The notes beneath the pieces were generated by a model. The model worked only from the letters and a program-made list of their open reading frames with translations. It did no database searches and was not told the origin of the DNA. The translations under genes and the position numbers were made by a program. DNA of 64,000 bases from the NCBI GenBank assembly GCA_964016885.1, contig OZ024750.1, positions 36,828,001 through 36,892,000 on the forward strand, read 5' to 3'. The DNA comes from Eledone cirrhosa (lineage: Eukaryota). This document shows, piece after piece, positions 8,195 to 59,620 of this stretch (position 1 is the stretch's first letter; every line of letters starts with the position of its first letter).

Positions 8195-11097
8195 GCACCC
8201 CTCTCCACTCTGTAAAGTGGTAGTGCTGCTGTCACAATAAAAGACACCCCCCTCCACTCTGTAAACTGGTAGTTCTGGTGTCACAATAAAAGACACCCCT
8301 CCACTCTATAAAGTGGTAGTGCTGCTGTCACAATAAAAGACACCCCCTCCACTCTGTAAAGTGGTAGTGCTGCTGTCACAATAAAAGACACCCCCTCCAC
8401 TCTGTAAAGTGGTAGTGCTGCTGTCACAATAAAAGACACCCCCTCCACTCTGTAAAGTGGTAGTGCTGCTGTCACAATAAAAGACACCCCCTCCACTCTG
8501 TAAAGGGGTAGTGCTGCTGTCACAATAAAAGACACCCCCTCCACTCTGTAAAGTGGTAGTGCTGCTGTCACAATAAAAGACACCCCCTCCACTCTGTAAA
8601 GTGGTAGTGCTGCTGTCACAATAAAAGACACCCCCTCCACTCTGTAAAGTGGTAGTGCTCCTGTCACAATAAAAGACACCCACTCCACTCTGTAAAGTGG
8701 TAGTGCTGCTGTCACAATAAAAGACACCCCCTCCACTCTGTAAAGTGGTAGTGCTCCTGTCACAATAAAAGACACCCACTCCACTCTGTAAAGTGGTAGT
8801 GCTGCTGTCACAATAAAAGACACCCCCCTCCACTCTGTAAAGTGGTAGTGCTGGTTTCACAATAAAAGACACCCCATGCACTCTGTAAAGTGGTAGTGCT
8901 GCTGTCAAAATAAAAGACACCCCCCTCCACTCTGTAAAGTGGTAGTGCTGCTGCAACAATAAAAGACACCCCCCCCCCTCCACTCTGTAAAGTTGTAGTC
9001 CTGGTGTCAATAAAAGACACTCCCCTCCACTCTGTAAAGTGGTAGTCCTGGTGTCACAATAAAAGACACGCCACTTCACTCTGTAAAGTGGTAGTCCTGG
9101 TATCACAATAAAAGACACCCCCTCCACTCTGTAAAGTGATAGTGCTGCTGTCACAATAAAAGACACCCCCTCCACTCTGTAAAGTGGTAGTGCTGCTGTC
9201 ACAATAAAAGACACCCCCTCCACTCTGTAAAGTGGTAGCGCTGCTGTCACAATAAAAGACACCCACTCCACTCTGTAAAGTGGTAGTGCTGCTGTCACAA
9301 TAAAAGACACCCCCTCCACTCTGTAAAGTGGTAGTGCTGCTGTCACAATAAAAGACACCCCCTCCACTCTGTAAAGTGGTAGTGCTGCTGTCACAATAAA
9401 AGACACCCCCCTCCACTCTGTAAAGTGGTAGTGCTGCTGTCACAATAAAAGACACCCCCCTCCACTCTGTAAAGTGGTAGTGCTGGTTTCACAATAAAAG
9501 ACACCCCCTCCACTCTGTAAAGTGGTAGTGCTGGTTTCACAATAAAAGACACACCCTCCACTCTGTAAAGTGGTAGTGCTGGTGTCACAATAAAAGACAC
9601 CCCCCTCCACTCTATAAAGTGGTAGTGCTGGTTTCACAATAAAAGACACCCCCCTCTACTCTGTAAAGTGGTAGTGCTGGTTTCACAATAAAAGACACGC
9701 CCCTCCACTCTGTAAAGTGGTAGTGCTGCTGTCACAATAAAAGACACCCCCCTCCACTCTGTAAAGTGGTAGTGCTGGTTTCACAATAAAAGACACCCCC
9801 CTCTACTCTGTAAAGTGGTAGTGCTGGTTTCACAATAAAAGACACGCCCCTCCACTCTGTAAAGTGGTAGTGCTGGTGTCACAATAAAAGACACCCCCCT
9901 CCACTCTGTAAAGTGGTAGTGCTGGTTTCACAATAAAAGACACGCCCCTCCACTCTGTAAGGTGGTAGTGCTGGTTTCACAATAAAAGACACGCCCCTCC
10001 ACTCTGTAAAGTGGTAGTGCTGGTTTCACAATAAAAGACACGCCCCTCCACTCTGTAAAGTGGTAGTGCTGGTGTCACAATAAAAGACACCCCCCTCCAC
10101 TCTGTAAAGTGGTAGTGCTGGTTTCACAATAAAAGACACCCCCCTCCACTCTGTAAAGTGGTAGTGCTGGTGTCACAATAAAAGACACCCCCTCCACTCT
10201 GTAAAGTGGTAGTGCTGGTTTCACAATAAAAGACACGCCCCTCCACTCTGTAAAGTGGTAGTGCTGGTGTCACAATAAAAGACACCCCCTCCACTCTGTA
10301 AAGTGGTAGTGCTGGTTTCACAATAAAAGACACGCCCCTCCACTCTGTAAAGTGGTAGTGCTGGTGTCACAATAAAAGACACCCCCTCCACTCTGTAAAG
10401 TGGTAGTGCTGGTTTCACAATAAAAGACACCCCCTCCACTCTGTAAAGTGGTAGTGCTGGTTTCACAATAAAAGACACGCCCCTCCACTCTGTAAAGTGG
10501 TAGTGCTGGTTTCACAATAAAAGACACCCCCCTCCACTCTGTAAAGTGGTAGTGCTGGTTTCACAATAAAAGACACCCCCCTCCACTCTGTAAAGTGGTA
10601 GTGCTGGTTTCACAATAAAAGACACCCCCCTCCACTCTGTAAAGTGGTAGTGCTGGTGTCACAATAAAAGACACCCCCTCCACTCTGTAAAGTGGTAGTG
10701 CTGGTGTCACAATAAAAGACACCCCCTCCACTCTGTAAAGTGGTAGTGCTGGTTTCACAATAAAAGACACCCCCCTCCACTCTGTAAAGTGGTAGTGCTG
10801 GTGTCACAATAAAAGACACCCCCTCCACTCTGTAAAGTGGTAGTGCTGGTTTCACAATAAAAGACACCCCCCTCCACTCTGTAAAGTGGTAGTGCTGGTG
10901 TCACAATAAAAGACACCCCCTCCACTCTGTAAAGTGGTAGTGCTGGTTTCACAATAAAAGACACCCCCCTCCACTCTGTAAAGTGGTAGTGCTGGTTTCA
11001 CAATAAAAGACACCCCCCTCCACTCTGTAAAGTGGTAGTGCTGGTGTCACAATAAAAGACACCCCCCTCCACTCTGTAAAGTGGTAGTGCTGGTGTC
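8195..11097. repeat. 48/49-bp minisatellite (about 60 copies) derived from SINE/RTE-tail internal unit
   Basis: Unit GACACCCCCTCCACTCTGTAAAGTGGTAGTGCTGCTGTCACAATAAAA; followed by degenerate SINE tail (TTGGCATTAGGAAGGGC). Confidence 0.95.
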
Positions 11098-11517
11098 TCA
11101 AAACACTTTGTAATGTGATTGGCATTAGGAAGGGCCATAGAAACCAAACCAAAAATGCAACATATGAGCTTATTGTGGTCATCTGACCTGTCTAGTCTCA
11201 GAACAGGATAACCGATCCAATCCATGTCAGCATTCTAACTGGACATAGCATAGGGGTGATGATGATGATGATGATGATGATGATTATTGTGGTGGTAGTG
11301 ATGATGATGATTATGGTGATGATGATGATGGTTTTGTTGAGGGTGATGATGATGATGATGGGGAGGGTGATGATGATGATGATACTTATACATATATTCT
11401 CAGATATGTACCCACACACATATATATATATATTCATATATACAAATATACATATATATGCACATATACAGATATATATATATATATGCACATATACATA
11501 TATATGCATATATATTA

Positions 11518-33924: not shown

Positions 33925-34289
33925 GATATATTAACAAATGGAAACTATATTTATAAAACCATATTTATTTCATTATACATATTTCAAGGACACCAAGTCA
34001 AATTATGGTGCGCTTTCATCAGATAAAATATAATATAGATCAGTTTTATAAATAAATATTGACATACCCTTAAAGAATGTGACCATTTCTGTTGCTTTAT
34101 ATCAGTTATAAAAATATTTGCTTGTTGTATCCCAACAAATTAAATATAACTTCTACATATATATATATATATATATACACACTTTTATACACACACTTAT
34201 ATATATATATATACACACACACATGTATATATATACATACACACTTCATTTCTACAGCTGAGTAAACTGGAGCAATGTGAAATAAATTA

Positions 34290-41717: not shown

Positions 41718-43420
41718 CAGTATTGTTGCAGTATTGTTGCAGTATTGTTGCAGTATTGTTGCAGTATTATTACAGTATTGTTGCAGTATTATTACAGTAT
41801 TGTTGCAGTATTATTACAGTAGTGTTGCAGTATTGTTGCAGTATTATTGTAGTGTTATTACAGTACTATTACAGTATTGTTGCAGTATTATTGTAGTGTT
41901 ATTACAGTACTATTACAGTATTGTTGCAGTATTATTGTAGTGTTATTACAGTATTGTTGCAGTATTGTTGTAGTGTTATTCTAATATTACTGTAGTGTTA
42001 TTCAGGTATTACTATAGTATTATTGTAATATTACTATAGTATTATTGTAGTATTACTACAGTATTATTGTAGTATTACTGCAGTATTATTGTAATATTAC
42101 TACAGTATTATTGTAGTATTACTACAGTATTATTGTAATATTACTATAGTATTATTGTAGTATTACTACAGTATTATTGTAATATTACTATAGTATTATT
42201 GTAGTATTACTGCAGTATTATTGTAATATTACTATAGTATTATTGTAGTATTACTACAGTATTATTGTAATATTACTACAGTATTATTGTAATATTACTA
42301 TAGTATTATTGTAGTATTACTACAGTATTATTGTAGTATTATTGTAGTATTACTACAGTATTATTGTAGTATTACTGCAGTATTATTGTAATATTACTAT
42401 AGTATTATTGTAGTATTACTGCAGTATTATTGTAATATTACTATAGTATTATTGTAGTATTACTGCAGTATTATTGTAGTATTACTGCAGTATTATTGTA
42501 ATATTACTACAGTATTATTGTAATATTACTGCAGTATTATTGTAGTATTACTACAGTATTATTGTAATATTACTATAGTATTATTGTAGTATTACTACAG
42601 TATTATTGTAGTATTACTGCAGTATTATTGTAGTATTACTACAGTATTATTGTAATATTACTACAGTATTATTGTAATATTACTATAGTATTATTGTAGT
42701 ATTACTGCAGTATTATTGTAGTATTACTACAGTATTATTGTAGTATTACTGCAGTATTATTGTAGTATTACTGCAGTATTATTGTAATATTACTACAGTA
42801 TTATTGTAGTATTACTGCAGTATTATTGTAGTATTACTGCAGTATTATTGTAGTATTACTACAGTATTATTGTAGTATTACTACAGTATTATTGTAGTAT
42901 TACTACAGTATTATTGTAGTATTACTGCAGTATTATTGTAATATTACTATAGTATTATTGTAGTATTACTACAGTATTATTGTAGTATTACTATAGTATT
43001 ATTGTAGTATTACTGCAGTATTATTGTAGTATTACTACAGTATTATTGTAATATTACTATAGTATTATTGTAATATTACTATAGTATTATTGTAGTATTA
43101 CTATAGTATTATTGTAGTATTACTATAGTATTATTGTAATATTACTATAGTATTATTGTAATATTACTATAGTATTATTGTAGTATTACTATAGTATTAT
43201 TGTAGTATTACTATAGTATTATTGTAGTATTACTATAGTATTATTGTAGTATTACTATAGTATTATTGTAGTATTACTATAGTATTATTGTAGTATTACT
43301 ACAGTATTATTGTAATATTACTACAGTATTATTGTAGTATTACTGCAGTATTATTGTAATATTACTATAGTATTATTCTAGTGTTATTACAGTATTGTTG
43401 TAATATTGTTGCCGTATTGT
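41718..43420. repeat. 11/22-bp minisatellite (AGTATTATTGT/AGTATTACTAC)
   Basis: Direct reading. Confidence 0.95.
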
Positions 43421-50617: not shown

Positions 50618-51292
50618 CATCATCATCATCATCATCAACGTTTAACGTCCGTGTTCCACGCTTGCATGGGTTTGGACGGGGGTAGTCCCACTTGAGGCAA
50701 GAGTGATTGTCTTGCTCGCATAGGACTGTCTGGCAGGTTTTCTACAGTTGGATGCCCTTCCTAACACCAACCACATTTACAGTGTGGGTCTGGGAGGTTT
50801 TTACCGTGTTGCCTACACGGCCACATTACAGCGTGGACTGTGTGTTTTTTTGTCGTGACACCTACACGATCTCATTTGTTTCGGCCTATGGCGCGGCACC
50901 AACATAACTTTACATAGAACGGGGTGGTGTGGATGGGGTGGGGGTGGTGGTGGTGGGACGGGGTGTATTTTGTTAGAGATGCCTACTGGTTGGAGTAGGT
51001 TTTACTATATATTTAGGTAAGGCGGGTCTTCTCTGTTACTGAGTACCGCCAAAGGTCTCGGTCCAGTGACATTGTCTTGGAGAGGTGTAAGTGTGTGATG
51101 TCGGAGTTTATCAGCTCGTCCCAGGTTTTTCTAGGTCTGCCTATTCCGTGACTACCGTCTATCTTTATTGCCCTGCACTTTGTTATACAGCTATCGACTT
51201 TCATGCGCATCACGTGTCCATACCAACGTAGCCTTCTCTCGAGTAAACAACATCTGATCCCTCTTATCTCTAATTTTTTCCTTAGTTCGTTT
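50618..51292 (-). mobile_element. 5'-truncated RTE copy, nearly identical to 12644-13324
   Basis: Same C-terminal peptide INELRKK...TEKTRLT and 3' UTR. Confidence 0.95.
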
Positions 51293-51340
<48 letters not shown>

Positions 51341-51375
51341 GTATGTATACATATGCATATAGATAGATAGAGAGA

Positions 51376-51777
51376 TGACCCCTTAGCCTTTGTCAAGGCA
51401 GAATTCTAGGAGAAGGAAAACTCTGATATAACACCTGCAACCCTGATGGTATCCAATGATGTTAACTTGTTCTTCTTTTTGGTAAATATCATCTTGGTTA
51501 AGAGAGTGGGACTGGCTTTGTGCAGTGCCTTTGCTCACTATAAAAGCTTCACGGCACAGGCATTGCTTTATATCGGGAGATCTCTCTGCACTTGTCATCA
51601 CATGGTACCATGGGCCCAGCACTATGTGTCAATAATTGTCACAAGTGTAGTGTTTGTACCAGAGTTTTCAAGTCGCTGGCTGGACTAAAAAGTCACACTC
51701 GTTCAGCCCATCGGTAGGGGTTCTCCTACATGGATATAAAGTAGTGGCCGTACTCGGAAACGAGTTGGCAGCCACCA
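51376..51777 (+). mobile_element. Short internally deleted RTE derivative (5' UTR joined to 3' end)
   Basis: CTAGGAGAAGGAAAACTCTGA RTE 5' UTR motif, then HKCSVCTRVFKSLAGLKSHTRSAHR* C2H2 finger typical of some RTE C-termini. Confidence 0.7.
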
Positions 51778-51798
51778 TATATATATATATATATATAT

Positions 51799-52629
51799 AG
51801 TTAAAGGTCTATAGATTTTCCCTGGATTTTACTAAATTCTGTGGATGAATTTATATCCTGATTCTCTTTTGAGATGAGTTTGAGTTATTTTTCCTAAATC
51901 TTTCGTTAACTACTTTTCCCATCTTGACGTTATAGTCGCATATATGTTATAGAATGCCGTTAGCTTCTTGCTAAAACAATCTCTATACCTCTCATTTATA
52001 TTTATACTCGGATTCTTTTCCTAGAGTGCTTAAACTATCTGTGACTAATCCCGGTTTTTTTCATAAAAACTGTGATAATATTGCTATTTTGCTGAACTCC
52101 TTTGTAGAGTTTTTTTCAGAATGTATTTGACTGCTATTTCTTGTAAATAAACATTCACTTCCATCCTGACGTCACTAGCCCCGTTTTTTCCTCATGTGCT
52201 TTTTCATAAATACACATGAAGGCGAACTAGCCAGTTTTAGAATTCCCTTTTTCGGATTATATTACTGTGAGAGCCCTGGTTTTCTGTTGAGCTCTGCTGA
52301 TGATTGAAATTCCAACCGTGACCATCTCCACTGAAAGTTTTCATGAAATAGTCTTTTAAGACTATACAGAGCATTTGATGTTATTCCAAATTGAAGGATA
52401 AGTGTTTCAAACTTTATTTTATCATGAGTTAAAGGTCTATAGATTTTCCCTGGATTTTACTAAATTCTGTGGATGAATTTATATCCTGATTCTCTTTTGA
52501 GATGAGTTTGAGTTATTTTTCCTAAATCTTTCGTTAACTACTTTTCCCATCTTGACGTTATAGTCGCATATATGTTATAGAATGCCGTTAGCTTCTTGCT
52601 AAAACAATCTCTATACCTCTCATTTATAT
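51799..52629 (+). mobile_element. Terminally redundant HHR element (628-bp unit + 203-bp repeat) in (TA)n
   Basis: 51799-52001 appears identical to 52427-52629; (TA)n on both sides; no ORF of 60 aa or more. Confidence 0.85.
52291..52372 (+). ncRNA. Type I hammerhead ribozyme, intact core
   Basis: GCTCTG-CTGATGA-t-TGAAA...TTTCA-t-GAAA-TAGTCT ttta AGACTA-TA-CAGAGC; all three stems pair; predicted cleavage after A52366 (AUA). Confidence 0.9.
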
Positions 52630-52799
52630 ATATATATATATATATTTGGACTTACATTTATATTTATATATATATAACTTTAGAATTTAGGCTTTTTTTA
52701 AAAATAAATTTAGCTTGCTGCATCACAACTGCCGTATATTTTCTAAACTTTATATTGCTTTTAATCAACTAAATGATGTCAAGATAGACAAAAAGTATA

Positions 52800-54780
52800 C
52801 CTTGCAAAGAGGGAAGCAGAGGATAGTAAGTTCAAGCATATTCTACAATGGGAAGACGAAAGACATGAGATATTCAGGATTGCAAGGCAATGTGTCAAGG
52901 AGAATTGTGATATTGTCGGGGAGACGTGTGTCCATAGCTGAAACTGATAAGAAGGTAGCTTGGAAGAGTCATTAAGAGAGACTACTGAATGTGGAGAATG
53001 AATGGAATAAAGATAGTCTGTCCCACATCGATCTAATAGATGGACCAGCGGTGCAAGTTAAAGGTAGTGTAGTAAGTAAGGCAATAACAAATATGAAGAC
53101 AGGCAAGGTAGCTGGGCCTTCGGGGATAGTTGCTGAAATGTTGAAGGTATCAGGAATGGCGGGACATACTATGGTCACCCGGATAGTAAACCAAGTAATA
53201 CAGAATGGGGTCATACCAAATGACTGGCGTAGCAGCATCATCATCACCTGTTACAAGAGCAAAGAAGACGCCCTGGATAGAGGAAACTATAGAGGCATTA
53301 AATTAGTTGACCAAGTCATGAAAGTCACAGAAAAAGGTATTACACAATTGATTGGAGACCAAATTGATCTAGATGAAAAGCAGTTTGGGTTTGTGCCAGG
53401 TAAAAATACCACAGATGCTCTTTTCCTTGTACGGCAATTACAGGAGAAGTACCTAGCTAAAAGCAAATCCCTCTACTTAGCTTTTGTTGACCTGGTGAAG
53501 GCCTTTGACAGAGTCCCACACACCTTAATCTAGTGAGCTCTTAGAAAGAAGTGGAAGAATGGCTTGTGAGAATTATACAAGCCATGTATAGAGGAACAGT
53601 CAGCAAGGTTAGAATTAACAATGAATATAGTGATGAATTTAGCGTAATGGTAGGGGTTCACCAAAGCTCCGTCCTTAGGTGCCTCCTGTTTATTATTGTC
53701 CTACAGGCTGTGGATTGGCAGTATCGGTAAGGGTCGGACGCCATGCTTTGAAGCATAGAGTTACCTCCCTTTATGATCTGAGTTCAAATCCCGCCGAGGT
53801 TAACTTTGCCTTTCATCCTTACGGGGTCGATAAAATAAAGTACCAGTAATGCACTGGAATAATTGCTGGCCTTGTGCCAAAAGTAGAAACAATTATTGTC
53901 CTACAGGCTATAACAGAAGGGTTTCAGACTGGCTGCCCATGGAAACTTCTATATGCAGATGATCTAACTCTCATAGCTGAATCCATAGCTGAACTAAAGA
54001 GGAAGTTCCAAACATGGAAGCATGGCTTGAATCAAAAGGCCTTAGAGTCAACTTGTCTAAGACTAAGGGTCTAGTATGTAGAAAGGAGAATAGGGCACAG
54101 GTACCCCCTGGGAAATGGCCATGCTCAGTGTGTAAGAAAAGGTGTAGGTAGAAACTCCATTCTATTTTCCAAATGCAAACTATGGTTACATAAAAATGTA
54201 ATGGGATCAGAGTTGAGTTATCTAAGAATGTAGAATTTATATGTGGCTGATGCTCAGGTGCAGTAAGTAGCAAGGACCCACTGGATGATATCTCCTTCAA
54301 CTGCCCAGATGGTTCTATAGAAATAGTAGACACTTTCTGTTGCCTGGGTGACAAAATCAGCAGTGGAGGAGGGTGCACTGAAAGTGTAGTAGCCAGAGTT
54401 AGAGCGGGATGGAAAAAGTTCAGAGAGCTCATACCGCTGTTGGCCACAAAAGGTTTTTCTCTAAAATTGAAAGGCAGATTGTATGATGCATGTATACAAA
54501 CGGCGATATTACATGGTAGGGAGACCTGGGCGTTGTGTGCTGAAGACCTGCATAGATTAGAAATAAATGAAGCTTGCATGCTCCTATGGATGTGTAATAG
54601 TAATGTGCATGGGATGTGTAATAGTAATGTGCACGAAAGGCGAAGCATAAATGAATTGAGAGAGAGACTAAGCATAAGAGGTATCAAATGTTATGTTCTG
54701 GAACAAAACCATTTAATCCGTGCTAACGTGGAAGATGGACGTTAAACGATGATGATAATGATGATGATAATGATGATGAA
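52800..54780 (+). mobile_element. Older decayed RTE LINE (same group as 11518-13324)
   Basis: MKTGK.AGPSGIVAEML, NYRGIKL, QFGF, KAFDRV, LLYADD with stops and frameshifts; (GAT)n tail. Confidence 0.9.
53710..53891 (+). mobile_element. Meta-domain-like SINE inserted into RTE, 18-bp TSD
   Basis: ATTATTGTCCTACAGGCT at 53692-53709 and 53892-53909. Confidence 0.92.
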
Positions 54781-55659
54781 CTTTGGCGTATAGAAGGGAA
54801 TCCAGCTGTAGAAACCAATCCAAATTCGGTTCTGTTTGAGCAAGGCATGGTTATCTGACCTTGAGTTGCCTCAAATAGGACTACTCATCTAACCTATGCT
54901 AGTGTGGAAAATGGATGGTGGTGATGATGATATATATTTATCTATTGTGGGAACCAATTCATAGGAGATACAATAAATGAAAATCTGCTCGAGCCTTCAT
55001 CGATCAACCTCAGTAGGGATCAGCAATGAAAAATTATGAATTGTGGAGGGACTTTGTCAAGAATATTCAATGTGGTTGCAATGATGATGATGATGATCTA
55101 AACTGCTATTCATAGCGTAGGAACTAACAAAACATTTATCGGTCATATAATTTTGTTACAGCTTCTTGTGAAATGGTTCTATTGATTGACATTTACATTA
55201 ATATATATGTTAAAAGAAAAAAAAAAAGCAAATTTAAATATATTTGTTATAGAAGATAACAAAGCTTGAATTGCGTAGCAACTTTAGTAATTATATGAGA
55301 TAAATGGGATGAAGAAACTGTTTGAGGTAACTGGGTGACCAGATATGGAAAAAAAACAAGTTAATATATAAATGTTATCAGATCTAGAATAAATCCTACA
55401 TAGAAAATAGGTCAATAAGTTTTTTAGAAATATACATAATAACAAAACAGAAAAAATATATTCACTGTTGAGAATGGGCTGAAAATAGTTTCAACATCTG
55501 TTTTGCAATACTATAAGATTGCTTCACTTTATGAATCAGTCTGTCTATTTCTGCAGATAACACAACTTGCATTACACTTAGTTTATTCATTCTTAGCTAT
55601 CTTTATTTAAATTCATATTATTATCCCTCTGGAGCCTTGACATTAAATGTCCAGCCCTC

Positions 55660-57170
55660 ACTATGAAATGGTCATGTAGGTGTCATGACAAAAAGCACCC
55701 AGTCCACACTGTAAAGTGGTCATGTAGGTGTCATGACAAAAAGCACCCAGCCCACACTGTAAAGTGGTCATGTAGGTGTCATGACAAAAGCACCCAGTCC
55801 ACACTGTAAAGTGGTCATGTAGGTGTCATGACAAAAATCACCCAGCCCACACTGTAAAGTGGTCATGTAGGTGCCATGACAAAAAGCACCCAGCCCACAC
55901 TGTAAAGTGGTCATGTAGGTGTCATGACAAAAGCACCCAGCCCACACTGTAAAGTGGTCATGTAGGTGTCACAACAAAAGCACCCAGTCCACACTGTAAA
56001 GTGGTCATGTAGGTGTCATGACAAAAGCACCCAGCCCACACTGTAAAGTGGTCATGTAGGTGTCACGACAAAAGCACCCAGCCCTCACTGTAAAGTGGTC
56101 ATGTAGGTGTCACAACAAAAGCACCCAGCCCTCACTGTAAAGTGGTCATGTAGGTGTCATGACAAAAGGACCCAGCCCTCAATGTAAAGTGGTCATGTAG
56201 GTGTCATGACAAAAGCACCCAGCCCTCACTGTAAAGTGGTCATGTAGGTGTCATGACAAAAGCACTCAGTCCACACTGTAAAGTGGTCATGTAGGTGTCA
56301 CAACAAAAGCACCCAGCCAACACTGTAAAGTGGTCATATAGGTGTCATGACAAAAGCACCCAGCCCACACTGTAAAGTGATCATGTAGGTGTCACAACAA
56401 AAACACCCAGCCCAGCCCACACTGTAAAGTGGTCATGTAGGTGTCACAACAAAAGCACCCAGCCCACACTGTAAAGTGGTCATGTAGGTGTCACCACAAA
56501 AGCACCCAGCCCACACTGTAAAGTGGTCATGTAGGTGTCACAACAAAAGCACCCAGCCCACACTGTAAAGTGGTCATGTAGGTGTCATGACAAAAGGACC
56601 CAGCCCTCAATGTAAAGTGGTCATGTAGGTGTCATGACAAAAGCACCCAGCCTGCACTTAAAGTGGTCATGTAGGTGTCATGACAAAAGCACCCAGCCCA
56701 CACTGTAAAGTGGTCATGTAGGTGTCACCACAAAAGCACCCAGCCCACACTGTAAAGTGGTCATGTAGGTGTCACAACAAAAGCACCCAGCCCACACTGT
56801 AAAGTGGTCATGTAGGTGTCATGACAAAAGGACCCAGCCCTCAATGTAAAGTGGTCATGTAGGTGTCATGACAAAAGCACCCAGCCCACACTGTAAAGTG
56901 GTCATGTAGGTGTCATGACAAAAGCACCCAGCCCACACTGTAAAGTGGTCATGTTGGTGTCATGACAACAAACACCCAGCCCACACTGTAAATATGGTTG
57001 GCGTTAGGAAGAACATGCAGCTGTAGGAAACTAGTCAAAATCAGTTCCATGTATGCAAATCAAGCTCCTCTTATCTCTCACATGTATGCAAATCAAGGTC
57101 TCTTATCTCTCACTAAGGGACTGCCCATCCTACCCATACTAGTGTGGAGAATGTACGTTAAACAATGATG
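55660..57170 (+). repeat. 47/48-bp minisatellite (about 28 copies) ending in SINE/RTE tail
   Basis: Unit GTCATGTAGGTGTCATGACAAAAGCACCCAGCCCACACTGTAAAGTG; tail GTTGGCGTTAGGAAG...ACGTTAAACAATGATG. Confidence 0.95.
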
Positions 57171-57679: not shown

Positions 57680-59620
57680 GCTACTAATTAGAACAGTACA
57701 GATACAAATGAGATAGTTAATCATGTACTAATGAAGGTAGACTAGATACTAATTATGATAGTCCAAATAATAATTAGAGCAGTCCAGCAACTAATTAGAA
57801 TAGTTCAGACACTAATTAGGATAGTGCAGCTACTAATTAGAACAGTTTAGATAATTAGGACAGTCTAGTTACTAATTAGGACAGTCCATATACTAATTAG
57901 GACAATCCATATACTAATTAGGACAATCCATATACTAATTAGGATGATCCATATACTAATTAGGACAGTCCATATACTAATTAGGACAGTCCATACACTA
58001 ATTAGGATGATCCATATACTAATTAGGATGATCCATATACTAATTAGGATGATCCATATACTAATTAGGACAGTCCATATACTAATTAGGACAGTCCATA
58101 ATCTAATTAGGACAATCCATATACTAATTAGGATGATCCATATACTAATTAGGACAGTCCATATACTAATTAGGACAATCCATATGCTAATTAGGACAAT
58201 CCATATACTAATTAGGATGATCCATATACTAATTAGGACAGTCCATATACTAATTAGGACAGTCCATATACTAATTAGGATGATCCATATACTAATTAGG
58301 TCAGTCCATATACTAATTAGGACAGTCCATATACTAATTAGGATGATCCATATACTAATTAGGACAGTCCATATGCTAATTAGGACAGTCCATATACTAA
58401 TTAGGACAGTCCATATGCTAATTAGGACAGTCCATATACTAATTAGGACAGTCCATATACTAATTAGGATGATCCATATACTAATTAGGACAGTCCATAT
58501 ACTAATTAGGACAGTCCATATACTAATTAGGATGATCCATATACTAATTAGGACAGTCCATATGCTAATTAGGACAGTCCATATACTAATTAGGACAGTC
58601 CATATGCTAATTAGGACAGTCCATATACTAATTAGGACAGTCCATATGCTAATTAGGACAGTCCATATACTAATTAGGACAGTCCATATACTAATTAGGA
58701 TGATCCATATACTAATTAGGACAGTCCATATGCTAATTAGGACAGTCCATATACTAATTAGGATGATCCATATACTAATTAGGACAGTCCATATACTAAT
58801 TAGAACAGTCCAGACACTGATTAGAACAGTCTAAATACTAATTAGGACAGTCTAGATACTAATTATGTGGAGGCATGTGGCCTAGTGGTAAGGTTGTTGG
58901 ACTTACGATCATAATATTGTGGGTTCGATTCCTGGGCTGCGTGTTGTGTTCTTGAGCAAAACACCTCATTTCACGTTGCTCCAGTATACTCAGCTGAAAA
59001 TACTGGCAATAGCTGGGGGTTTAACCCTGCGATGGGGGAGTCTTGTACTCTCAGTCGCTTCACACCATAAAACCAGGATAAGCACCAGCCAAATGAGTCT
59101 TCTGGCTTAAGACAGAGTTTAGACTTTAGATACTAATTAGGGCAGTCTAGATACTAATTAGGACAGTCCATATACTAATTAGGATAGTCCATATACTAAT
59201 TAGGATAGTCCATATACTAATTAGGATAGTCCTTTACTAATTAGAACAGTACAGATACTAATTATGACAGTCTAGATACTATTAGAACAGTCCAGACACT
59301 AATTAGGACAGGCTAGATACTAATTAGAACAGTCCATGTACTAATTAGGACAGTCCAGATACTAATTAGGGCAGTGTAGACACTAATTAGAACAGTCTAG
59401 ACACTAATTAGGGCAGTCCAGATACTAATTAGAACAGTCCTGACACTAATTAGGGCAGTCTAGACACTAATTAGGGCAGTCCAGATACTAATTAGAAAGC
59501 CCAGACACTAATTAGGGCAGTCCAGATACTAATTAGAACAGTCCAGATACTAATTAGAACAGTCCAGACACTAATTAGGGCAGTGTAGACACAAATTAGA
59601 ACTGTCCAGACACTAATTTC
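57680..59620. repeat. 21-bp minisatellite (ACTAATTAGGACAGTCCATAT) interrupted by a tRNA SINE at about 58866-59127
   Basis: Direct reading; SINE has TGGCCTAGTGG and GGTTCGATTCC boxes. Confidence 0.95.

Follow-up and report, generated by a model that had tools for sequence, protein, structure and literature searches.

Cervera and de la Peña (2014) proposed that Penelope RNA cut by hammerhead ribozymes is ligated and then copied more than once (PMC4209133), and both the role of hammerheads in Penelope-like elements and the circular origin of tandem insertions have been in question since then. In 2020, the same authors defined the non-LTR retrozymes and demonstrated circular forms in coral, mussel and axolotl; in HHR_Amex2, one of the axolotl ribozymes, stem II opens with a U·U mismatch (PMC7229834). 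Li, Clavereau and Pollet (2026) described retrozyme units of 51-972 bp and tied them to Penelope pseudo-LTRs; in Xenopus, 24 of the 57 retrozyme families match known elements, and one of nine dimers was cleaved (10.64898/2026.07.22.740005). With regard to the enzyme, Frangieh et al. (2024) reported that initiation is internal, that AT-rich sequence is cleaved and that insertion proceeds even when the hammerhead does not cut; in the case of Poseidon_Ac, reverse transcription starts ~90 nt past the hammerhead cut, and uncut RNA is the main substrate (PMC11167929). Craig et al. documented a (TA)n bias of Naiad and a microsatellite bias of Neptune elements (10.1101/2021.04.23.441226), and one squid genome contains 235 Rfam hammerheads (PMC6962438). 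In the literature searched, we found no account of the family described below, nor any study that mapped the ends of retrozyme insertions; the family may be catalogued in subscription journals or repeat databases, which lay outside the scope of the search.

The element analysed here is located in a 64,000-nt stretch of the Eledone cirrhosa genome (hereafter, the window) and is very probably a non-LTR retrozyme: it is non-coding, tandem and multi-copy, carries a type I hammerhead in each unit, has a G+C content below 50% and neither LTR nor PPT, and shares its genome with Penelope-like elements. Accordingly, its architecture does not represent a new kind, given that the element falls within the class of non-LTR retrozymes and that the model of a circle followed by reverse transcription has already been published (PMC4209133, PMC7229834). 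Taken by itself, the element is an unremarkable representative of a class already described. The window copy comprises the following features:

51777-51798, no strand: (TA)n target, left side, a TA run of 22 nt
51799-52001, plus strand: 5'-truncated partial unit, the first copy of the 203-nt repeat, recognized by identity to 52427-52629
52002-52629, plus strand: full 628-nt unit without an ORF, in its natural phase, which was set from the common 3' end of the family
52167-52174, plus strand: palindrome TGACGTCA, presumably CRE-like, a candidate internal promoter element
52291-52372, plus strand: type I hammerhead with a predicted cut after 52366, recognized by fold, pair probabilities and conservation in the family
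52394-52523, plus strand: predicted long hairpin directly 3' of the hammerhead, from predicted folds
52427-52629, plus strand: second copy of the 203-nt repeat, bearing the family's fixed 3' end (about 52625-52629), the probable start point of reverse transcription, from junction counts
52630-52645, no strand: (TA)n target, right side, a TA run of 16 nt

The window copy is 831 nt long, which corresponds to 1.32 units with one hammerhead. Its terminal segments, 51799-52001 and 52427-52629, are identical at all 203 bases, with a period of 628 and no leftward extension of the repeat; a second measurement, with the TA run counted in, gave a repeat length of 208. The original prediction had correctly recognized this repeat and its period, the pure (TA)n tracts that bracket the copy and the absence of an ORF: the longest stop-free frame encodes 64 aa and the longest ATG frame, 45 aa. 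The 628-nt unit has a G+C content of 33%, and its longest purine run is 6 nt. As a whole, the unit folds better than shuffled sequences (z -3.4), and two-sided change was detected in one of the 136 predicted pairs, in a single sequence among 19, with no covariation beyond the hammerhead. The block around TGACGTCA (52162-52181) is 92% conserved across 43 older units, and the palindrome possibly is an internal promoter element. Within the hairpin, the segment 52442-52501 is 92-97% conserved in the older units, and covariation among the predicted pairs over the whole unit lends the hairpin no support; it is a candidate protein-binding element.

The hammerhead has the anatomy that had been anticipated, including a perfect core, and the predicted fold supports it. 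Stem I consists of six Watson-Crick pairs (52291-52296/52367-52372) and stem III of seven, A15.1-U16.1 included (52348-52354/52359-52365); the core is formed by CUGAUGA at 52297-52303 and GAAA at 52345-52348, and the predicted cut after 52366 follows an AUA triplet. Stems I and III pair with a probability of 0.85-1.0. Stem II, on which the original prediction was silent, consists of five pairs (52305-52309/52339-52343) with a 29-nt loop and a U·U mismatch at its base in place of G-C; its pairing probability is ~0.1, as opposed to ~0.5 for the hairpin that competes with it at 52332-52343, and the catalytic fold, at -17.7 kcal/mol, lies 0.4 kcal/mol above the minimum of -18.1 kcal/mol. In these models, the competing hairpin takes the 3' strand of stem II and could keep the hammerhead partly off. 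A conserved GTTG 5' of stem I (52285-52290) can be paired with CAAC in loop II (52312-52317), a possible loop 1-loop 2 contact proposed from the sequence; both segments are nearly invariant in the family alignment, leaving nothing for covariation to score.

The covariance-model search that had been suggested as a check gave no hammerhead match in Rfam at E up to 1, and its seven matches were all miRNA models on simple repeats. Furthermore, a loose core pattern matches the window nine times, against a shuffle mean of 5.3, and 25 of 100 shuffles reach nine. This is not above chance; what carries the case for the hammerhead is its stems, together with the conservation seen across the family. Across 51 family sequences, 97.4% of 816 cells are paired, a value that none of 500 shuffles attained, and one pair of stem II is changed on both sides (U-A in 28 sequences, C-G in 22), which amounts to a single event on the family tree. 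The CTGAnGA core is intact in 55 of 60 distinct family segments; among these 55, position 7, a tolerant position of the hammerhead core, is C in 28, G in 16 and T in 11. Identity to the 43 older units is 0.937 for the hammerhead and 0.934 for another block, compared to 0.865 for the remainder, and the fold is retained through four subfamilies.

Elsewhere in the window, a second hammerhead-like core, with an eight-pair stem I and a short stem III, is found on the minus strand at 33952-34022; it resembles motifs in three other loci (L066, L071 and L077) and probably is the end of a different Penelope family. The element is flanked by broken LINE-type RT fragments at 52800-54745 (plus strand), which matches RVT_1, and at 51013-51405 (minus strand). 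The window also contains minisatellite arrays at 8196-11101, 55651-56992, 41718-43418 and 57746-59618, with units of 49, 47, 22 and 21 nt, respectively; the 49-nt and 47-nt units are related to one another.

In the 3.0-Gb genome, 1,288 sites match a 26-nt loop II tag exactly (0 for the reversed control), so that, by sequence, the family appears to have at least 1,288 hammerhead-bearing units. A local tandem duplication of a single-copy sequence, which had been named as a possible refutation of the original prediction, is incompatible with this count. No matches to the tag were found in metagenome and viral contigs. With the 831-nt copy as the query, 85 matches at 98-100% identity were obtained from the 40 scored among 2,324 candidates. 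To sample insertions by tag and not by end, we took the first 100 of the 1,288 matches, all on a single contig (C1), which yielded 76 insertions. Their identity to the window unit is at least 97% in 27 cases, 93-97% in 7, 86-93% in 11 and below 86% in 31. In a tree of 61 of the 115 distinct near-full units, groups are apparent at 82-83, 87, 89-91 and 97-100%, and units from one array tend to cluster together. The window subfamily, at 97-100%, is consistent with the young insertion that had been claimed. Copies range from stubs to 12-unit arrays, the longest being of 12.4 units, and in one array of 7.5 units the difference between units is 0.5%. The length required for two hammerheads, at least 967 nt, is reached by 16 of 72 tagged insertions; the window copy, with 831 nt and a single hammerhead, cannot itself yield a circle and hence is a dead-end product. 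As had been noticed, its hammerhead (52291-52372) lies outside the repeat, which starts at 52427; this merely reflects the point at which the copy was truncated, and longer copies bear a hammerhead in every unit.

For the analysis of insertion ends, we numbered the unit from 51799 as position 1, which places the cut site at 568 and the end of the window copy at 203. The 3' end falls at 203-209 in 71 of the 76 tag-sampled insertions, with TA next in 63 of the 76; the other five end at 199, 178, 147, 147 and 599. In a query-biased set, where a few duplicates of one insertion are left, 132 of 142 distinct junctions are at 203-209 and two at 402. The common 3' end is shared by the subfamilies at 82-83, 87, 89-91 and 97-100%, and in the window copy it sits 263 nt 3' of the cut site 52366. 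By contrast, the 5' ends are spread over the unit: of 113, just 2 map to the 5-nt surroundings of the cut site (564-574), which equals the uniform expectation, and no pile-up at one transcription start was seen. No indels were found at 107 passes through the cut site or at 81 passes through the unit end. The 72 tagged insertions that keep the end are all at least 322 nt long, with 39 reaching at least 636 nt, 18 at least 950 nt and 9 at least 1,264 nt; the lengths halve about every 314 nt, show no step at the unit or cut boundary and have a heavy tail (8 at 1,578 nt and 4 at 2,834 nt). A clear direct target duplication, of 49 bp, is present in 1 of 50 young complete insertions (L103), and inverted 5' pieces occur in L084 and in the 12-mer array, features that liken these insertions to those of Penelope elements.

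The window copy is likely to be a polar product, for which copying began at a fixed point, 263 nt beyond the cut, and stopped at random, in which case 51799 is the likely point where reverse transcription stopped. We consider a Penelope-type internal start of reverse transcription highly probable. The circularly permuted 1.3-mer of the original prediction is borne out insofar as the copy, at 1.32 units, exceeds one round; the permutation, however, is not free, as only the 5' end varies. The proposed mapping of copy boundaries gave the same polarity, with 71 of 76 ends at one point and scattered starts.

Some junctions deviate from the common pattern. Minor 3' ends at position 402 (L008 and L093) and at position 147 (L273 and L275) lie at sites that resemble the main end and are followed by TA; by analogy with the two sites in Poseidon_Ac, these are possible alternative start sites of reverse transcription. 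In four loci (L130, L121, L104 and L089), flank sequence is duplicated, directly or in inverted orientation, across TA runs adjoining the insertion, which suggests fold-back priming at TA during insertion. An older subfamily has an abundant stub of ~63 nt, covering unit positions 142-203 and with TA on both sides; it was found in element orientation at about 1503-1569 in L131-L160, and also at L007:1381-1446 and in L245. The cut of this stub at position 142, an internal AT stretch, is present in 29 of 30 fetched loci, drawn from 887 candidates with a query that favoured such stubs.

Variation between the units of one insertion bears on the nature of the template. Among 41 young insertions of at least 700 nt, 18 carry a substitution in every covering unit (28 sites in total), compared to 118 single-unit changes in 53,294 bases, a degree of sharing well above what chance would give. 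Four insertions (L006, L099, L008 and L094) are under two units long and yet share variants between units, which whole-unit duplication cannot explain. Such sharing indicates that one template sequence was read twice, as would be the case with a circle. In one array, a 29-nt deletion is present in both covering units, and one insertion (L248-) differs by 0.2% between its own repeats as opposed to 3.6% from the nearest other insertion; only in a few of the 29 insertions compared (L248-, L296 and L254) is the internal difference clearly smaller than that to the nearest other insertion. As proof of a circle, array-wide variants apparently confined to one insertion are weakened: 4 of 16, apparently private among 41 insertions, recur in shorter ones when 49 are compared, so that many of these are marks of sub-lineages, which a homogeneous linear source would pass on as well. 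Furthermore, 17 sites are common to only some units of long arrays, pointing to local duplication within these arrays.

On the whole, we lean slightly towards a circular template over an uncut multimer. The circle is favoured rather than shown because an uncut multimeric transcript leaves a nearly equal footprint and is the main Penelope substrate in vitro (PMC11167929). Under this alternative, an uncut linear transcript of a tandem array would be copied from a Penelope-type internal start, without a circle, and the hammerhead would be used otherwise, for 5' trimming or in a later role. Weighing against the circle and on the side of the linear transcript, the one purified Penelope protein used uncut RNA without needing the hammerhead in vitro, where hammerhead mutants still were inserted (PMC11167929), and stem II is weak, competing in the fold models with the hairpin at 52332-52343. 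The cleavage of only one of nine Xenopus retrozyme dimers (10.64898/2026.07.22.740005) also counts against the circle, as do the single tree event behind the stem II change and the second block that nearly equals the hammerhead in conservation. In addition, long uniform arrays that could serve as sources exist (12.4 units; 7.5 units at 0.5%), and the fixed 3' end, the scattered 5' ends and the clean passage through the cut site fit a linear multimer equally well. Nevertheless, the hammerhead fold has been kept in four subfamilies, with a two-sided change and variation at position 7; many uniform sub-lineages would each need a homogenised source array; the 5' ends do not pile up at one start site; and an ordered run of unit variants common to two insertions was not found, by inspection, among the 49 compared. 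We therefore regard the uncut multimer as a serious but rather unlikely template.

Other explanations fare far worse. The heavy length tail above 1,264 nt and the variants shared by neighbouring or alternating units of long arrays would be compatible with an origin at the DNA level, in which a satellite-like unit spreads through local duplication or extrachromosomal DNA circles and the hammerhead is a relic. However, the polar fixed end, the scattered other end, the dispersed sites, the target duplication and the 5' inversions are marks of retrotransposition, whole-unit duplication of a shorter copy cannot yield a 1.32-mer, and the hammerhead fold is conserved, so that we give this origin very little credence.

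The genome has 10,595 GIY-YIG candidates, of which 150 were scored. Three long Penelope-like stop-free frames, of 938 aa (L061), 844 aa (L062) and 1,096 aa (L063), were scanned; RT and GIY-YIG were recognized in two of these (938 and 1096 aa) and RT alone in the third, and all three are, on sequence grounds, candidates for the mobilising enzyme. Several Penelope families of this genome end in (TA)n, and some bear hammerheads with a U·U base of stem II. In the copies examined, no Penelope ORF is continuous with the element; upstream of the fixed end lies either the next unit or TA. At 69 loci (an array on C2 and 68 taken from the tag list), Penelope fragments occur near 13 and are continuous with the element in none, and the 64-kb window contains no such fragments. 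A profile of 61 family sequences, run against 50 of the 150 scored GIY-YIG loci, matched family copies only; masked locus flanks showed no homology to Penelope ends; when 13 Penelope 3' ends were aligned locally to the family (52 alignments), the best z was 2.4; searches with diverged subfamilies returned further non-coding copies only; and a motif from a loose contig end, sought as a lead to the partner, had 0 matches. A short stretch in common with the 3' end region of the L010-type Penelope family is not significant. The RT fragment at 52976-53530 was rejected as a partner: it matches RVT_1 and not Penelope proteins, TA and further DNA lie between it and the element, and it is an unrelated neighbour.

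Penelope ends in this genome also display a fixed 3' end, 5' truncation, insertion at TA and a hammerhead that precedes the end by ~260 nt, and the copies might accordingly be 5'-truncated pseudo-LTR ends of an ordinary autonomous Penelope element with an ORF outside the sample. This, too, appears most improbable: the next unit, not an ORF, lies upstream in every long copy, the fragments near 13 of the 69 loci are in no case continuous with the element (with 100 of the 1,288 tag matches examined), and there is no homology to the sampled Penelope ends. The truncated end of an autonomous Penelope was rejected for the same reason, the lack of an RT/GIY-YIG ORF continuous with the repeat in the loci examined, and the other finding that could have overturned the original prediction, copies adjoining such an ORF, did not materialize. 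One Penelope-like element (L076:3260-6525), consisting of an RT end, a cysteine linker and GIY-YIG, lies in TA as an inverted repeat of 1,629 nt without mismatches; one of its arms has a short tail, and a small hammerhead precedes the end of the element by ~160 nt.

R2 enzymes jump from the 5' end of one template to the 3' end of another, and equivalent jumps between cut linear monomers would account for more-than-unit copies with an active hammerhead and without a ligase, but this route is hardly credible in view of the 0 indels in 107 passes through the cut site, the 2 of 113 5' ends near that site (no excess), the lengths without a step and the variants common to units of one insertion.

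The unit is present in RNA of one run. In this run, X1, a ribosomal-protein contig skips a GT..AG intron without any difference from the genome, whereas run X2 is unspliced over the same stretch, which identifies X1 as RNA of this species and X2 as DNA. X1 contains two overlapping contigs, 51983-52337 and 52313-52613, with one difference each, which span the unit end and the cut site. The signal, from one run, may represent intronic read-through from many copies, and the contigs inform on presence, not on strand, level, cleavage or circularity; the circle and the cleavage are predictions of the model, neither of which such contigs can show. Near-identical pieces at 52420-52613 and 51816-52039, at a depth of ~4.5, also occur in two runs labelled as two other organisms (X5 and X6). 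Neither run contains ribosomal-protein contigs of this species, and the pieces, most simply explained as trace DNA of this species, were left out of the evidence.

On balance, we slightly prefer to view the window copy as a 5'-truncated, 1.32-unit non-LTR retrozyme copy, generated when a borrowed Penelope-like RT/GIY-YIG made more than one lap of a circular RNA with a predicted length of 628 nt. Under this scenario, a source copy with two hammerheads (at least 967 nt) would be transcribed, in line with the unit seen in one RNA run, and the hammerheads, the fold of which is conserved, would cut at the position equivalent to 52366. A host ligase would then close the monomer, as inferred from other retrozymes. 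A protein, presumably the Penelope-like enzyme, would nick the (TA)n target at which the copies are found, and reverse transcription would begin inside the RNA, at the one site 263 nt past the cut that corresponds to the fixed end; the internal start of a Penelope enzyme provides a precedent (PMC11167929). The RT would lap the template until a random stop, the lengths showing that the number of copies roughly halves with every 314 nt, and some arrays have later lengthened by local duplication, as the variants common to neighbouring units show. More tentatively, the family might be a free-living circular RNA parasite, akin to no Penelope end here, that spread in at least four waves through rolling-circle reverse transcription by a borrowed Penelope enzyme. 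If this is the case, hundreds of datable copies would constitute the clearest genomic footprint yet of Penelope-type tandem insertions from circles. The family is short, has a young subfamily (97-100%), more than 1,000 units, a sharply defined internal start and a hammerhead that should, by prediction, be active as a monomer, and these properties make it a convenient substrate for distinguishing between circle and multimer and for addressing the enzyme and the RNA signal.

Like the described non-LTR retrozymes, the family consists of tandem units that encode no protein and each contain a type I hammerhead, with a G+C content below 50% and a range from monomers to multimers (PMC7229834); it also coexists with Penelope-like elements in one genome and has the U·U base of stem II found in HHR_Amex2. 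The 628-nt unit is longer than the 150-450 nt given for that class (PMC7229834) and falls within the range of 51-972 nt (10.64898/2026.07.22.740005). Stem III has 7 pairs here versus 1-2 in those elements, and loop II here is of 29 nt. The accessible parts of the two papers (PMC7229834, 10.64898/2026.07.22.740005) hold no report of an anatomy such as that seen here, in which most copies are dispersed and 5'-truncated and share a single fixed 3' end in (TA)n. We found no pseudo-LTR parent among the elements searched here, whereas 24 of the 57 Xenopus families match known elements (10.64898/2026.07.22.740005).

Plant LTR retrozymes, as summarized in PMC7229834 and 10.64898/2026.07.22.740005, similarly combine terminal redundancy with a hammerhead and a length of 600-1000 nt, but carry a type III hammerhead in true LTRs, a PBS, a PPT and 4-bp target duplications. 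Here, the hammerhead is of type I, the repeat length varies by copy and the longest purine run is 6 nt. Assignment to the LTR retrozymes was rejected given the type I fold, a repeat length that follows the 5' end and a sole clear duplication of 49 bp, not 4 bp. Compared to Penelope-like elements (Poseidon_Ac, Neptune and Naiad), the family differs in having no ORF and in the distance from the cut to the end, which is 263 nt as opposed to ~90 nt in Poseidon_Ac (PMC11167929). It resembles them in that reverse transcription probably starts within the RNA, downstream of the hammerhead, and in the AT-rich or (TA)n targets, the 5' truncation, the partial tandems and the inverted 5' pieces (PMC11167929; 10.1101/2021.04.23.441226).
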